From positions 1-64,000 of the forward strand of contig JBEKKX010000008.1 in assembly GCA_050010515.1 (NCBI GenBank): a stretch of DNA of 64,000 nt, in the 5' to 3' direction. Under the pieces are notes generated by a model. It saw nothing but the letters and a program-made list of their open reading frames with translations, was not told where the DNA came from and made no database searches. The stretch comes from Candidatus Bathyarchaeia archaeon. GTDB lineage: Archaea; Thermoproteota; Bathyarchaeia; Bathyarchaeales; Bathycorpusculaceae. Below are positions 2,484-8,716 of this stretch, one piece after another. Numbering within the stretch: the first letter of the stretch is position 1; each line of letters starts with the position of its first letter. Position numbers and translations under genes: made by a program.

Positions 2484-3296
2484 TCAATGGTTTTTTGTTG
2501 CCTTTTTAAGTTCAGATGCAGTTGCTTGTAGCTCCTTTAGGAGAAGGTCGATGTTTTCCTGATGTGCTTTGATTAGGTTTATGAAGGCGCTTCCAACAAT
2601 TACGCCGTCAGCACCTGCCCCAACAATGCGCTTTACATGCTCAGGCTTTGAGATGCCAAACCCAACCGCCAGCGGAATCTTGCCAGAAGTGAAAGGCAAA
2701 ACTCGCTTGACCAGCTGAATAGTTGAATTCTCAATCGCTGACTGCGCACCTGTAACGCCGAAATGTGAAACAAGATACAGAAAACCTGAAGAACACTCAA
2801 CAATCCCCTCAAGCCGCTCATTAGAAGTGGAAGGTGCGGCTAGAAAAATTGTGTCTACACCAAATTGGCTTGCGGCTTTCTTGTAGTCGCCTGCTTCCTC
2901 CACAGGTAAATCTGGAACTATGACGCCGTCAACCAGGCACTCGCTGGCTAAACCGAAAAATTTCTCCAGCCCCATCCTGAACACTGGATTATAGTAAGTC
3001 ATTATTACAACTGGCGCATCATGGCTTTGCCGTATTTCCTTAGCAATTTCTAGCACTTTAACAGGCGTTGTGCCAGCAGCTAAAGCGCGTACGCTTGCAG
3101 CTTGAATTGTTGGTCCATCAGCAATCGGGTCGGAAAAGGGAAGCCCAAGCTCTAAAATGTCTACGCCGCCTTTGATTAAGGCGTCAGCAATTTTCGCCGT
3201 CAGTTCTGGTTTTGGATCTCCAGCCATAATGTAGCCGATGAGGGCTCCGTTTCCCTGCGCCTTAGCATTTTGGAATGCCTTGTTTATTGTGTTCAT
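2484..3296 (-). CDS. trpA: Tryptophan synthase alpha subunit
   Basis: [27 protein letters not shown] and ADGVIVGSA motifs. Confidence 0.97.
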
Positions 3297-4489
3297 ATTT
3301 TTGCTCCTATGTAGTCTGCTATGGTTTCAACGTCTTTGTCTCCCCGTCCCGACACTGTTACAACGATTGACTGGGTCTTCTTCATTTTTGGAGCTATCTT
3401 CATTGCGTAAGCCACTGCATGTGAGGACTCTAATGCAGGCAGGATTCCTTCCTCTCTGGACAAAGTGAGAAAAGCATCTACCGCCTCCTTGTCTGTGGCT
3501 GAAACATATTGCGCTCTTTGGAGGGTTTTTAGGAAGGAGTGTTCTGGTCCAACGCCCGGATAGTCTAAGCCTGCGGACACGCTGCTTGTGTTCTGTATTT
3601 GCCCATTACTATCTTGAAGAACGTAAGTTAACATGCCGTGAAATACGCCTTCTGCTCCTGCACCAAGAGAAGCGGCGTGTTTGCCTGTTTCTAAGCCTTC
3701 TCCTGCAGCTTCAACACCATAAAACTTCACCTCATTATCATCTTCAAAGGGGTAGAATGTGCCTATAGCGTTGCTTCCGCCGCCAACACAAGCAACCAGT
3801 GCGTCTGGCAGTTTGCCTTCCTTTTTCTGGAATTGTTCTTTGAGTTCTTTGCCGATTACGCTTTGGAAATCCCTAACAATCATAGGATACGGATGGGGAC
3901 CGACGACTGAGCCGATTAAGTAATAAGTCGTCTGAAGGTTTGTAACCCAATCCCTGAACGCTTCGTTTATCGAATCCTTGAGGGTTTTTGAGCCCGCTTC
4001 CACAGGATGCACTTGCGCGTTTAGAAGTTTCATCCTGAAAACGTTAAGCCGCTGCCTTTCGCAGTCTTCCGTGCCCATGTAAACCTCAGCTTTTAAACCT
4101 AAAGCAGCGCAAGCTATTGCTGTGGCTACGCCATGTTGACCTGCTCCTGTCTCAGCGATTACACGCGTCTTACCCATCCGCTTAGCCAGCAACGCTTGGC
4201 CGATTGTATTGTTTATTTTGTGTGCTCCACCGTGGGCTAAGTCTTCACGTTTAAGGTAAATCTTGGCGCCGCCCACTTTACGCGTTAAGTTCTCAGCGTA
4301 ATACAATGGTGTCGGTCTTCCAACGAATTCTGAAAGGTAGTAGTCAAGTTCTTTCTGAAAACTTGGGTCTTTCCTTGCTTGTTCGTAGGCATCTTCCAAC
4401 TCCTTAATCGCTGCCATCAGGACTTCTGGAACAAAGCGACCGCCATATTTCCCATATTTTCCGTTAATTGGGTAATTGCTTACTTTCAT
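3293..4489 (-). CDS. trpB: Tryptophan synthase beta subunit (TrpB1 type)
   Basis: [15 protein letters not shown] (PLP lysine), [17 protein letters not shown] and [11 protein letters not shown] motifs. Confidence 0.98.
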
Positions 4490-5265
4490 TTTGCATTCAC
4501 AAACTCCTTAACTTTTTCTTCAATGTTATCGGTTGACATTATGGCTGATCCGCTAAGGAAAGCGCATGCACCACTTTCACGCAGAAACCGTATGTCTGCT
4601 GGCGTATTTATTCCGCTTTCGCTTACGACCACTTTGCCTTTTGGATTATTTTCGGCAAGAATTTGTTTTGTCACGTTCAAATCCACCTTTAATGTTGCAA
4701 GGCTACGGTTATTTATCCCAATCAAATCAGCGCCTGTTTTGATGGCGGATTGAAACTCCGATTCGGTGTGGGTTTCAAGCAAAACTTCAAGACCGAACAG
4801 ATGAGCCCCGTCTATCATTTCGTTAATGCTTTTTTCGCAGTATCCTCTGTCAAAAAGCGTTTTAATTAGCAAAACGGCGTTAGCTCCTATCTTTGATGCG
4901 GCTTCGATTTGTATTGGGCTTAAGATTATGTCTTTCATGAGGATGGGAAGTTTCACGGCTTCTCGCGCTTCAGTCAATGCTTCTAGAGAGCCGTTGAAGT
5001 GTTTTGGCTCAGTTAACACGGATATTGCGGTTGCTCCGCCTTTTGCCATAGCCTTCGCAATCATGCTTGCTTTAACGTTTTTTCTGATTACTCCGGCTGA
5101 TGGTGAAGCGGCTTTGATTTCGGTTATGACTGGGTTAGCTTTGCTTTCTAAAATTGCCTTCTTTAAGCTAATGCGAACTCTTTCTGTCGGCTTTAACGTT
5201 TCATAGTATCCGCTTTCAATTGTTTCTTTAGCATCACGAATCAGCACATCTAGAAAATCACTCAT
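4486..5265 (-). CDS. trpC: Indole-3-glycerol phosphate synthase
   Basis: [24 protein letters not shown] and SESGI motifs. Confidence 0.96.
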
Positions 5266-6319
5266 ACTTCGCTTTCAACTCCTCAAGTTTTGACAGGTTT
5301 CCGCCTGAAGCTTTTACTAAAGCCTTAAGCTTGGCGTAGGCAGCTCCGCTTTCGATTGATTTACGGGCTATTTCCATGCCGCCTTCGAAGTCTTCTGCTT
5401 CCCCGCCAACAATGATTCCTGCCGCACTGTTGACAAGCACAAACTCCGCTTTGGGGTCATCTAAGGCGCAGTTGCCGCTGAGAATTTTGAATAAGGTTTC
5501 AGCGCTTTCCTCAGGCGTTTCCGCTTTCAAATCGGCGATGCTTGCTTTTTCTATTCCGAAATCGCTTGGAGAAGCCTCTCGTTCTGTTACTTTGCCTTTC
5601 TTTAACCATGCAATAGCCGTCTTTCCAACCGTTGACACTTCATCCAAGCCATCTAAGCCATGAACAACCATCGCTTCCTCGCAACCCAGCCGCTTCAACG
5701 CATAAGCCAATGGAGCTGTCAGTTTAGGGTCGTAGACGCCGAGCAGTTGGGCGTTGGCGCATGCTGGATTAGTTAGCGGTCCCAGAAGGTTGAATACTGT
5801 GCGAATCCCTATTTCGCGTCTTGGCTCAGCCGCATACTTCATGGCGGGATTGAAAGCTGGAGCAAACATGAAGCCTATCCCAACGTTTTCTATTATACCT
5901 TCAACTGCTTCGGGCTCCAAATACAGGTTAAGACCGAGCTTTTCTAGCACGTCGGCGCTGCCGCTTTGGCTGGTTACAGCCCTGTTTCCATGCTTAGCAA
6001 CCGCAACGCCGGCTCCTGCAATGACGAAGGCTGCTGCTGTGCTCACGTTGAAGGTTTTTATTTTGTCTCCGCCTGTCCCGCAGGTATCCACTAGGCGGCT
6101 ATGCACATGGGGATGTATCTGGCTGCTCTGCTCACGCATAACAGAGGCAAAGGCGATAAGTTCCTCAACAGCTTCACCCTTCATTCGCAAGGCTGTTAGA
6201 AAAGCAGCAGTCTGCGAGCTTGTTGCTTTTCCCGACATAACTTCTCGCATTATCGCTCCTGACTCGTCGCTTGTTAAGCTGTATCCTTCGATGAGTTTCT
6301 GAATGCCTTCCCTAATCAT
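5258..6319 (-). CDS. trpD: Anthranilate phosphoribosyltransferase
   Basis: DTCGTGGD, NVST, KHGNR, GSAD and GLDE motifs. Confidence 0.97.
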   Translation of the reverse strand: MIREGIQKLIEGYSLTSDESGAIMREVMSGKATSSQTAAFLTALRMKGEAVEELIAFASVMREQSSQIHPHVHSRLVDTCGTGGDKIKTFNVSTAAAFVIAGAGVAVAKHGNRAVTSQSGSADVLEKLGLNLYLEPEAVEGIIENVGIGFMFAPAFNPAMKYAAEPRREIGIRTVFNLLGPLTNPACANAQLLGVYDPKLTAPLAYALKRLGCEEAMVVHGLDGLDEVSTVGKTAIAWLKKGKVTEREASPSDFGIEKASIADLKAETPEESAETLFKILSGNCALDDPKAEFVLVNSAAGIIVGGEAEDFEGGMEIARKSIESGAAYAKLKALVKASGGNLSKLEELKAKYE

Positions 6320-6906
6320 AGCCGTCGCCTCTCATCCAAGAAGTTTTTAATTATAACTTTGCCGTCTTCGCAGAGAATCGATTCGGGATGAAATTGCACG
6401 CCATCAATCGGGTACTTAACATGCCGAATGCCCATAATTTCACCGTCATCAACGCATTCTGCGGTAATTTCTAAGCATGAAGGAATAGAGCACCGTTCGC
6501 CAGCAAGCGAATGATACCTCGTTGCCGTAAATGGGTTGCGTACACCTGTGAAAATGCCTTTTTGGTCATGTTTTATTGTGCATGTTTTTCCATGCATGAG
6601 CCTTTTGGCATGGATAATTTTTCCGCCATAAACGCTGATTATGCCTTGGTGACCTAAGCAAACGCCTAAAGTTGGAATTGTAGGACTCATGGTTTGCAGA
6701 ATCTTTGTGCAAACACCAAAGTACCTATCATCTTCAGGTGTGCCTGGACCTGGCGAAATCACAATTCTGTCAGGATTAAGCTTGGTTAACTGTTCTAGGG
6801 CAACTTGGTTGTTTCTGTAAACGATGATTTCTGCGCCCTGTTCACCTATGTACTGGACAAGGTTGTAAACGAACGAATCGTAATTATCGATTACTACTAC
6901 CTTCAT
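6316..6906 (-). CDS. trpG: Anthranilate synthase component II (glutamine amidotransferase)
   Basis: IDNYDSF, SPGPG, GVCLGHQ and QFHPES motifs. Confidence 0.97.
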   Translation of the reverse strand: MKVVVIDNYDSFVYNLVQYIGEQGAEIIVYRNNQVALEQLTKLNPDRIVISPGPGTPEDDRYFGVCTKILQTMSPTIPTLGVCLGHQGIISVYGGKIIHAKRLMHGKTCTIKHDQKGIFTGVRNPFTATRYHSLAGERCSIPSCLEITAECVDDGEIMGIRHVKYPIDGVQFHPESILCEDGKVIIKNFLDERRRL

Positions 6907-8319
6907 GGTTTTGCGTCTCCAGCCTGCTCAAGTGCCTGCATCAGCGCTTTTGCCTTGTCGTCTGTTTCGAACCATTCTCTTTCTGGAACTGAATCAGCTA
7001 CGATTCCGGCGCCAGCTTGAATGTACGCTTGGTTCTTGTCGGCGAAGAGGGTGCGGATGGTTATGGCAAAGTCGGCATTGCCATTGTATGAAAAGTAGCC
7101 TACTGCGCCAGCGTAAGGTCCACGCCTAGCTGGTTCAAGTTCATCAATGATTTCCATCGCTCGCACTTTTGGTGCTCCAGAAACCGTGCCAGCTGGAAAA
7201 ACAGCCCGCAGCGCATCATAGCTTTGAAGGTTTTCTTTAAGTTCACCTACCACTTGCGAAACAATATGTTGCACGTGGCTGTACTGGTGGATTTTCATGA
7301 ATTCAGGCACATGAACGCTTCCATACTTGGAGATTCTGCCAATATCATTACGTGCTAAATCGACAAGCATCACGTGTTCAGCACGTTCTTTTGGGTCGGC
7401 AAGCAGTTCACGGGCTAACTTGTTGTTTTCGCCGGGGTCTTCAGCAACGGGTCTTGTTCCTGCAATGGGGAAGGTTTCCACAATTCTATTTTCAACTCGA
7501 ACAAGCATTTCCGGGCTGGAACCAACGATTTGCCGATCGCCTGACTTGTAAAAGTACATGTAGGGTGAAGGGTTAATGGTGCGAAGACACTGATAAAACG
7601 AAATAAGGTCACCTTTTACGTGGAACTGGTAGCGTTTGGATAGGACAACTTGGAAAATGTCTCCTGCGGTCACGTATTCTTTTGCTTTTTCTACCGCTTT
7701 TTCGTAGTTTTCTTTTTTAGTGTTTACTTTAGGTTGAGTGTAAGATAATTCTTCAGAATTGATTGGTTGCTTGACTAGGCTTTCAACTTCGGGTAGGCGA
7801 TTCTCGCTTCGGTAATAGTAGAATGCTTGTCGCCGTATATGGTTGAAGATGAATCCGTCGTCAAATATGCCCATTTCCAAGTCAGGGAAATTCAGGTCAG
7901 CTTGAGAGTTTTCTGACAGTTTTTCCCAGTAACGTACCGCATCATACGAAATGTAGCCGACCGCTCCGCCAATGAATCTGAATTCACTGTTTGAGACTGC
8001 AGCGTCTTTGAGTAGGCTTTCTATGAGTTGCAGGGGGTCGGTTGTTTTCTGTGTGGTTGTTACGTCCGTTCTTTCGTTTTTGATTTGGGCTTTTTTGTTC
8101 TTGGTTTGGAGGATTATTTTTGGGTCGAATCCGATGAATGAGTATTGTGCGAGTTTTTTCGGTCCTTCGATTGATTCGAGAAGGTAGGTTGTTTTGTATT
8201 GTTTTTGAAGTTTTGAGAATATTTCGAGGGGTTGTTGTGTGATCTGGATTTTTTTGATTTTTAGGGGGTTAGCTGGTTTGGTTTCGGTTGTTGTGTGTGC
8301 GCCAAAGGTGATTCCCCAT
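6903..8319 (-). CDS. trpE: Anthranilate synthase component I; full length needs a +1 frame change near 8305
   Basis: C-terminal SPE, KERAEH and GTVSGAPK motifs. The frame stays open upstream of the track's 7880 start through LLESIEGPKKLAQYSFIG and GGAVGYISYD to a TGA at 8343..8345, with no in-frame ATG/GTG/TTG above 7880. Confidence 0.9.
8269..8319 (-). CDS. Putative trp leader peptide MGNHLWRTHNNRNQTS (16 aa, one Trp)
   Basis: First ATG after the predicted transcription start, with AAGGAAG upstream; Leu(CTT)-Trp(TGG) at codons 5-6; TAA at 8269..8271. Confidence 0.55.
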   Translation of the reverse strand: MGNHLWRTHNNRNQTS

Positions 8320-8357
8320 TTTTGTTCGTGCTTCCTTATGGTTCAGAAGCATACGTC

Positions 8358-8397
8358 AGTGTACTATTTAAGGCTTATCTGCACTAAAATGTACACT
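8358..8397 (-). promoter_or_regulatory. trp operon promoter with TRP-box-like operator
   Basis: Minus-strand TATA CTTAAATA (8366..8373) flanked by the inverted repeat AGTGTAC (8358..8364)/GTACACT (8391..8397); hexamers TGTACT, TGCACT and TGTACA at 8360, 8380 and 8390. Confidence 0.6.
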
Positions 8398-8716
8398 AAG
8401 GTTTGAGCACAACACTCATCCAATCCAGATAAGCCTTCGACGCATCAACAATCGGAAGCGCCAGAACCTCCGGAACCTCATAACTATGCAAACCTTTCAC
8501 ACGCTCAGCAACTTGCGAAAACAAATCTACGCGCGATTTCATAACGATTAAGCATTCCTCAGCCTTTTCAATTTTGCCAAACCAATGGAAAAATGACGCG
8601 ACCGGATTAACGATGTTACCGCAAGCAATCAAACGTTCATTCAAAAGTGCCTGTGTTATTTTTTCTGCTTCCTGCTTATCCTTCGCAGTAACTAATATGA
8701 TTATGTAATTGTTCAA
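8396..8716 (-). CDS. cutA: Divalent-cation tolerance protein CutA
   Basis: LIACGN, HWxGKIE and HSYEVPEV motifs; 106 aa. Confidence 0.93.
   Translation of the reverse strand: MNNYIIILVTAKDKQEAEKITQALLNERLIACGNIVNPVASFFHWFGKIEKAEECLIVMKSRVDLFSQVAERVKGLHSYEVPEVLALPIVDASKAYLDWMSVVLKP

Follow-up and report, generated by a model that had tools for sequence, protein, structure and literature searches.

In the 64,000-nucleotide (nt) window analyzed here (positions 1 to 64,000 of contig JBEKKX010000008.1 from a Candidatus Bathyarchaeia archaeon, assembly GCA_050010515.1), the trpE gene, which encodes component I of anthranilate synthase and is the first gene of the trpE-G-D-C-B-A operon on the minus strand, has no start codon of its own and is preceded by a short open reading frame (ORF) that lies one base out of frame with it. 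Comparison of trpE 5' ends shows that a change of frame at the site NUU_UGG, where the codon NUU would occupy the ribosomal P site and UGG the A site, is conserved and required, and it strongly supports a programmed +1 frameshift at this site. We further consider it probable, if well short of certain, that trpE is made by way of this frameshift and that the "hungry" codon in the A site senses the amino acid produced by the operon.

The frame change upstream of trpE

On the minus strand, trpE occupies a frame that opens at 8342, past the TGA at 8345-8343, and runs to 6903. Its product matches the profile of archaeal TrpE (TIGR01820) at 551.7 bits, compared to the cut-off of 512.05, over profile positions 1-449 of 449. 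The first ATG, GTG or TTG of the frame is the TTG at 7880, 154 codons into the open frame. The sequence-only reading, a note made earlier from the letters of this DNA alone, had described the frame as open up to 8342 with no start above 7880, and both coordinates are reproduced. Start-like codons make up 5.4% of all codons in this genome, so that a run of 146 codons devoid of them has a chance probability of about 3e-4. In 46 full-length trpE relatives, the first 100 codons past the site contain 0.87 such codons per 100, vs. 3.5, and then 5.0, further on; this is an approximately six-fold depletion, as a gate would require.

The leader ORF (8269..8319, minus strand; taken as the 0 frame) consists of 16 codons followed by the TAA at 8271-8269. 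It reads ATG (8319-8317), GGG, AAT, CAC, CTT (8307-8305), TGG (8304-8302), CGC and so on to the stop codon, and its sixth codon is the sole Trp codon. The leader ATG is one base off the trpE frame, and a +1 slip at CTT_T would join the first 5 residues of the leader to the 466 residues of the trpE body (6903..8303, minus strand, in the +1 frame from GGC at 8303), yielding a TrpE of 471 residues. Both the out-of-frame 16-codon leader with its single Trp codon and the 471-residue trans-frame product had been put forward in the sequence-only reading; for the former, every coordinate was recovered on the minus strand, and the latter follows from the computed 5 + 466 residues.

Several local signals accompany the leader. 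A Shine-Dalgarno (SD)-like AAGGAAG (8331..8337, minus strand) is located 11 nt 5' of the leader ATG, and in the relatives, motifs of the GGAG/AGGA type are found 6-11 nt 5' of the leader start, with a consensus "gg" peak at -14/-13. In the shift heptamer CTT_TGG_C (8301..8307, minus strand), the P site would hold CUU, read by tRNA-Leu(GAG), and the A site UGG, and after the slip UUU would be followed by GGC; the genome encodes a tRNA-Leu(GAG) and one single tRNA-Trp(CCA). An internal SD-like stretch, GGGGAATC (8310..8317, minus strand), is complementary to the 3' tail of 16S rRNA, which in this genome ends in ...GGATCACCTCCT (terminal part GGAUCACCUCCU), and ends 2 nt before the P-site codon; across the loci compared below, the complementary stretch ends 1-2 nt ahead of this codon. 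As judged by eye, GRGG of the mRNA would pair with CCUC of the rRNA, and AUC with GAU, leaving one or two rRNA bases unpaired. From the shift site to PLEIF, the first conserved motif of TrpE, the trpE frame runs through an A/C-rich, G/T-poor linker (8229..8303, minus strand), inside which the leader stop is located. This linker of 25 codons is nearly free of G and T and rich in Thr, Gln, Lys, Pro and Asn codons; it is A/C-rich throughout the genus and not in distant lineages. Such a composition might serve to avoid start codons, SD-like sequences or RNA structure. Shuffled sequences are predicted to fold at least as stably as 8345-8225 (z = +0.43), which thus gives no sign of an RNA structure acting as a stimulator.

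For the comparison, we used trpE 5' ends from three sources, namely 30 matches (L001-L030) in 24 genomes that belong to the genus or its order and include that of the window, 40 named public contigs, and 40 genomes from 16 families of the class, which were picked for family coverage from the 181 of 401 sampled genomes that contain trpE. In this set (L001-L110), 108 loci could be anchored on the PLEIF motif, and two distant contigs (L067 and L068) could not. The cassette [start] RGG NAT NNN NTT TGG N, with TTT GGN in the trpE frame, is present in 101 of the 108 anchored loci, which represent 94 unique ones, and in 94 of the 99 unique trpE 5' ends from Bathyarchaeia. It is missing from two bacterial contigs (L066 and L070), from three loci with ordinary SD-led starts (L092, L095 and L097) and from two in-frame fusions (L011 and L040). 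Two public contigs that are titled Acidoferrum (a bacterium) and Nanoarchaeia (L038 and L063, respectively) carry the cassette together with a Bathyarchaeia-type trpE (82% and 62% identity) and are probably mis-binned.

Among the 94 unique loci, to which the following counts refer, the leader starts with ATG in 87, GTG in 4 and TTG in 3, and never with CTG; codon 2 is RGG in 90, codon 3 is mostly NAT, and codon 4 is free. The P-site codon is CTT (60 loci), GTT (24) or ATT (10). The A-site codon is TGG in all 94, and the trpE frame reads TTT GGN at the site, again in all 94. The leader frame terminates after 7-51 codons in every locus, and 92 of the leaders contain a single TGG. In 46 loci, the trpE frame offers no ATG, GTG or TTG from its last stop up to the conserved domain, and in 31, this frame is shut by the TGA of an ATGA sequence. 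The linker comes in 11 lengths, from 21 to 31 codons, with TTT GGN in frame every time. The Phe codon at the site is invariably TTT and never TTC, compared with a TTT:TTC ratio of 50:50 genome-wide. The T in question is a synonymous position in the trpE frame, yet UGG begins with it and the slip would land on it. Conservation of an out-of-frame ATG..CTT TGG among relatives, which the sequence-only reading had proposed to look for, is therefore extensive, with only 3 Bathyarchaeia loci having ordinary starts. Nucleotides 3-11 of the leader conform to GRGGNAUCY, with nt 3-6 and 8-9 highly conserved, a purine at nt 4 and nt 7 free. Pairing with the 3' end of 16S rRNA would explain why nt 4, opposite a U, can be either A or G, why nt 7 is unconstrained, and why a stop codon of the trpE frame (TGA) is tolerated at nt 2-4.

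The position of the frame change is delimited by stop codons. A trpE-frame TAG immediately precedes TTT in two loci of the class (L089 and L090) and, outside the class, in L146 and the family f62 (L148, L151, L158 and L160), whereas in the leader frame a stop is located one codon past TGG in L087, and TAA directly follows TGG in L149 and L175. Given these stops in both frames, the change of frame must occur with NTT and TGG in the ribosome. Furthermore, in three relatives (L011, L040 and L153, the last compared with L154), the leader ATG...CTT is joined in frame to trpE. In L040, one G is missing within TTTGGC compared to its relative L038, so that the two frames are fused exactly there; this missing G could be a sequencing error of that assembly. 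The fusions in L011 and L153 are independent. Taken together, the class-wide cassette, the bounding stops, the in-frame fusions, the invariant T and the complementarity to the anti-SD sequence 1-2 nt upstream support the +1 slip at CTT_TGG that had been suggested from the window alone.

A sister cassette and the range of the trpE cassette

A scan for long start-less ORFs in the same genome identified a second gene with a comparable 5' end, a LeuA/CimA-type synthase gene (P0003; G000:C15:10293-11837, minus strand; L111/L113) that has no in-frame start for 62 codons and is preceded by a leader of 10 codons, GTG GGG TAT TGC TTT ATT ... TAA, one base out of frame. In the orthologous set, which consists of the best-scoring 30 loci from the 119 of 151 genomes of the class with a match, TTT ATY is present in all 30 loci and [ATG/GTG] GGG NAT NNY in 29. 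Codon 6 of this leader is an Ile codon, ATT in 13 loci and ATC in 17. The T/C alternation in ATY leaves Ile unchanged in the leader frame and exchanges Phe for Ser in the gene frame, so the codon under conservation is that of the leader frame. In the 27 of the 30 loci in which the leader could be parsed, it is 6-10 codons long, and 13 of these leaders stop directly after ATY. In one relative, the gene heads an ilvB-ilvN-leuC-leuD-leuB-paralogue-pheA cluster, and NCBIfam assigns both LeuA/CimA-type paralogues to the same 2-isopropylmalate synthase subfamily. As read from the nucleotide patterns, the design shared by the two cassettes is a start, four codons, NUU, and one codon for an amino acid made by the operon.

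Three scans of the window's genome yielded no third gene family with the cassette, the other candidates having nearby in-frame starts. A search with the strict cassette pattern across 81 genomes of the family gave 21 matches vs. 1 in the control and no further gene family; all matches are of the trpE or LeuA type, save for one at an internal Met of a stress-protein-like ORF in genome G327. A CobD/HisC-type aminotransferase ORF of the window's genome (P0002; G000:C31:20139-21275, plus strand; L112) has no ATG, GTG or TTG in its first 71 codons, shows homology from about residue 18 (HGGD...) and lacks the cassette.

The trpE cassette itself extends beyond Bathyarchaeia. Among 39 trpE 5' ends sampled non-randomly in further classes of the phylum, picked for a far N-terminal match or for family sampling, the five-codon form is present in 21, a form with 3, 6 or 7 codons before NTT TGG in 10, and an ordinary start in 8. 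In the family f40 (L149, L157 and L163-L177), all 17 loci carry the cassette; 16 of them have the form ATG GGT GRN NNN NTT TGG, and the remaining one is longer by a codon. Archaeal AmoA was detected in all three f40 genomes tested, which identifies this family as ammonia oxidizers. In 16 of 16 f40 loci, 21-23 nt separate the end of a TATA-like element from the ATG; given the usual geometry of archaeal promoters, this suggests that the trpE mRNA in this family may be leaderless, beginning at that AUG. The LeuA/CimA-type cassette is absent from the ammonia oxidizers, with ordinary ATG starts in 5 of 5 genomes. Since a related form of the trpE cassette is found in cultivable ammonia-oxidizing archaea, the idea is directly testable.

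Proposed mechanism and alternative explanations

We propose that ribosomes would initiate at the ATG at 8319 and read Met-Gly-Asn-His-Leu, at which point peptidyl-tRNA-Leu(GAG) would be positioned on CUU in the P site and UGG, the only Trp codon of the leader, in the A site, while the mRNA stretch just behind, GGGGAAUC, would pair with the 3' end of 16S rRNA in a prfB-like manner. If charged tRNA-Trp is scarce, the A site would remain empty and tRNA-Leu would re-pair one base further on, at UUU, with GGC as the next codon, which would lead to the 471-residue TrpE; thereafter, the ribosome would proceed via the 4-8 nt overlaps into trpG, D, C, B and A. If Trp is plentiful, UGG would be decoded and translation would terminate at the TAA at 8269; TrpE would not be made, since its frame lacks a start codon. 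We infer the dependence of the shift on Trp from the identity of the A-site codon; the case is stronger because UGG is invariant and because the sister cassette has an Ile codon in front of an ilv-leu gene. The rRNA pairing presumably participates in the shift, given the complementarity described above.

Several observations weigh against this scheme. After the slip, re-pairing would be only partial for the GUU and AUU P-site codons, as well as for UUU_A of the LeuA type, and we know of no studied precedent for a shift at codon 5/6, so near to initiation. Some in-frame start-like codon is present upstream of TTT in 26 of the 94 loci, and in 10 of these 26, ATG or GTG directly precedes TTT, so that a conventional start is possible there. 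The same holds for the ammonia oxidizers, all 17 of which have an in-frame GTG at nt 5-7 from which f40 trpE might conventionally start. Within nt 4-19, the variable positions (nt 7, 10, 13 and 19) coincide with third codon positions of the trpE frame, a pattern that would also fit a Gly-Ile-x-Phe-Gly peptide translated from a near-cognate AUH start. Finally, the LeuA-type gene may serve the synthesis of either Ile (as CimA) or Leu.

Part of this scheme could be correct without any sensing: the +1 frameshift might be real but constitutive, i.e., a fixed recoding event that supplies TrpE at a low, constant level, with UGG being retained because the slip and the Gly codon depend on U-GG, and not to detect Trp. 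All the comparative evidence for the frameshift applies equally to this possibility, and one study describes frameshifting in the Escherichia coli pheL leader as incidental, not used (PMC3082878). However, a constitutive shift provides no reason why two operons that are unrelated to each other should both have an A-site codon matching the product of the pathway (UGG in 94 of 94 loci and AUY in 30 of 30), and the three frame-fused lineages show that the shift is dispensable for production of the enzyme. We therefore regard the constitutive variant as unlikely.

There might also be no frameshift at all, if a near-cognate codon of the trpE frame served as the start (ATC at 8312-8310 or ATA at 8339-8337 in the window; AUH in the relatives), with the ATG ORF acting as an overlapping, competing or regulatory, upstream ORF. 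Indeed, the trpE-frame codon at nt 8-10 is ATC, ATT or ATA in most loci, and the match of the variable positions to trpE-frame third positions, the ten loci with ATG or GTG one codon further on and the in-frame GTG of all the ammonia oxidizers can be cited in its favor. Nevertheless, this codon is ACT or GCT in L077 and L078 and GTT in L023, L064 and L079, and in L089, L090, L146 and f62, a trpE-frame stop lies between it and TTT, the f62 linker being devoid of a canonical start. The ATA/ATC start that had been listed as an alternative in the sequence-only reading is thus impossible in the loci that either have such a later stop or lack such a codon (L077, L078, L089, L090, L146 and f62). Moreover, the GGGG or GAGG found 1-2 nt before AUH is too near to function as an SD sequence, and the upstream GGAG is 17-20 nt away. 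A near-cognate start would also leave unexplained the invariant T of TTT, the restriction of nt 1-3 to start codons and the in-frame fusions, and the sign of the regulation would be wrong, as a ribosome stalled at UGG would cover AUH, so that starvation would repress rather than induce trpE. Overall, this explanation appears quite improbable.

Taken alone, a single genome with an out-of-frame start would look like the result of an assembly indel, for instance one in the CACACACA run, and a 2-nt indel had been raised in the sequence-only reading. We nevertheless give such an artifact, or a trpE pseudogene, a negligible chance. The contigs from three independent DNA runs of three different studies (X6, X8 and X11) span 8100-8500 with no indel at the site; one of these contigs has CGC in place of CAC, which is the commonest variant among the relatives. 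The frame relation is shared by 94 unique loci, drawn from many assemblies and several sequencing technologies, unlike the CA run, which the relatives do not conserve. In addition, trpE is of full length, above the TIGR01820 cut-off, in an intact operon. Transcriptional slippage is not supported either: apart from T3 there is no run at the site, and the A-run preceding the ATG differs in length among relatives, with the ATG-to-TGG distance remaining constant.

Genomic context, known systems and implications

Downstream of trpE, the operon comprises trpG (6316-6906), trpD (5258-6319), trpC (4486-5265), trpB (3293-4489) and trpA (2484-3296), all on the minus strand and assigned by NCBIfam. As the sequence-only reading had it, the genes overlap down the operon, each of them sharing 4-8 nt with its predecessor, from which translational coupling along the operon can be surmised. 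There is no trpF among the overlapping trp genes (2484-8342), and no genome-wide search for it was made.

The promoter region (8359..8396, minus strand) contains a TATA-like TTAAATA (8371-8365) within the conserved TAAGCCTTAAATA. The TATA-like element is flanked by an inverted repeat, GTGTAC (8396-8391) and GTACAC (8364-8359), with a TGTACA box at 8395-8390. At least one TGTACA is present within 120 nt upstream in 55 of 92 related loci, and the TATA element mostly ends 39-47 nt before the ATG. These boxes recall the "TRP box" operator of TrpY in methanogens (Methanothermobacter), and by analogy, transcription of the trp operon may be controlled as well. The resemblance lies in the TGTACA boxes flanking the trpE TATA element; unlike the cassette, TrpY acts on transcription and would constitute a separate layer of control. 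A literature search on TrpY and TGTACA retrieved nothing relevant. The cutA gene, for a divalent-cation tolerance protein (8396-8716, minus strand), ends with a TAG (8398-8396) that falls within the upstream arm of the promoter repeat. From the only RNA run (X20), a 295-nt contig that covers 8248-8500 originates from a relative that is 90-95% alike; it shows neither a transcript start nor transcription.

One of the closest counterparts of the trpE cassette is the autoregulatory +1 frameshift in bacterial prfB, the gene for release factor 2 (RF2), which occurs at CUU UGA C and involves an internal SD sequence. In both cases, a short 0-frame ORF precedes a main ORF in the +1 frame, the heptamer is CUU-U-G-N-C, tRNA-Leu slips from CUU to UUU, or is predicted to do so, a G-rich stretch complementary to the 3' end of 16S rRNA is located a few nucleotides upstream, and a slow event in the A site would report the level of the pathway's own product. 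Unlike in prfB, the A site of the trpE cassette contains the sense codon UGG instead of the stop codon UGA, so that charged tRNA-Trp rather than a release factor would be sensed; the cassette belongs to trpE in an archaeon, the shift is at codon 5/6 instead of 25/26, and the P-site codon can also be GUU, AUU or UUU. The cassette thus works like prfB while falling outside the prfB family, considering that the A site is UGG in 94 of 94 loci and the gene is not that for RF2.

The yeast Ty1 element also employs a +1 frameshift, at CUU AGG C, where the tRNA for the slow codon is always rare and the product ratio is fixed. Hungry-codon frameshifting occurs in E. coli, and a recoding review (PMC5009743) mentions this type of frameshifting. 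As in these cases, tRNA-Leu would slip +1 off CUU with a slow sense codon in the A site, and no downstream RNA structure would be needed; unlike in Ty1, the slow codon specifies the operon's own amino acid, which would make it a feedback sensor, and an SD-like stimulator is present. The trp, leu, ilv and phe operons of bacteria are controlled by leader-peptide transcription attenuation (trpL and others). Here, too, a short leader ORF with one or more codons for the end product precedes the first biosynthetic gene, and stalling raises, or would raise, expression. However, the archaeal leader has no tandem sensor codons, no terminator or antiterminator is predicted, the leader and the gene overlap in different frames, and stalling would alter the reading frame rather than transcription. 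Antizyme is produced by a regulatory +1 frameshift that senses polyamines. It is similar in that the efficiency of a regulatory +1 shift reports a metabolite controlled by the pathway, and differs in that it is eukaryotic, has a stop codon in the A site, is stimulated by a high level of the metabolite and yields an inhibitor instead of a biosynthetic enzyme. Antizyme frameshifting is mentioned in PMC5009743 and PMC4505036.

Our literature searches found no description of a frameshift in trpE, or of an amino-acid-sensing frameshift, in archaea. Within the accessible text of two recoding reviews (PMC5009743 and PMC8211752) and of a survey of frame transitions (PMC3711429, whose supplementary gene clusters might list one), there is no mention of trpE or anthranilate; the word "tryptophan" is absent from the corresponding text of PMC8211752 and PMC3711429 and occurs twice in that of PMC5009743, where it concerns a conserved Trp codon in the vicinity of a frameshift site, an unrelated case. 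On the best reading of these comparisons, what is new here is a prfB-type architecture that employs a sense codon as the sensor, in archaea, to control amino-acid synthesis.

Regarding the phylum as a whole, we see roughly even chances that the cassette is an ancient and modular substitute for attenuation in Thermoproteota. It would consist of a five-codon leader with a stretch complementary to the anti-SD sequence and NUU, followed by a sensor codon (UGG in front of trpE, AUY in front of ilv-leu genes), at which an empty A site would trigger the +1 shift, and its trpE form would extend beyond Bathyarchaeia, including the ammonia oxidizers.

To our knowledge, the means by which archaea match amino-acid synthesis to supply in translation are largely unknown, and the coupled attenuation and T-box systems of bacteria are lacking in archaea. 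If the proposed mechanism is correct, the trpE cassette would be, as far as our literature searches show, the first natural case of a "hungry" sense-codon frameshift that functions as an amino-acid feedback sensor, with a sensor logic that could be transferred between operons by the change of one codon. It would also imply that the design known from prfB, namely an SD-like stretch, CUU_U and a slow A site, arose or persisted outside bacteria. In practical terms, it would account for the truncated or mis-started models that gene callers produce for trpE, and for one LeuA-type gene, across hundreds of genomes of Bathyarchaeia, in which the mis-called genes can give a false appearance of auxotrophy.

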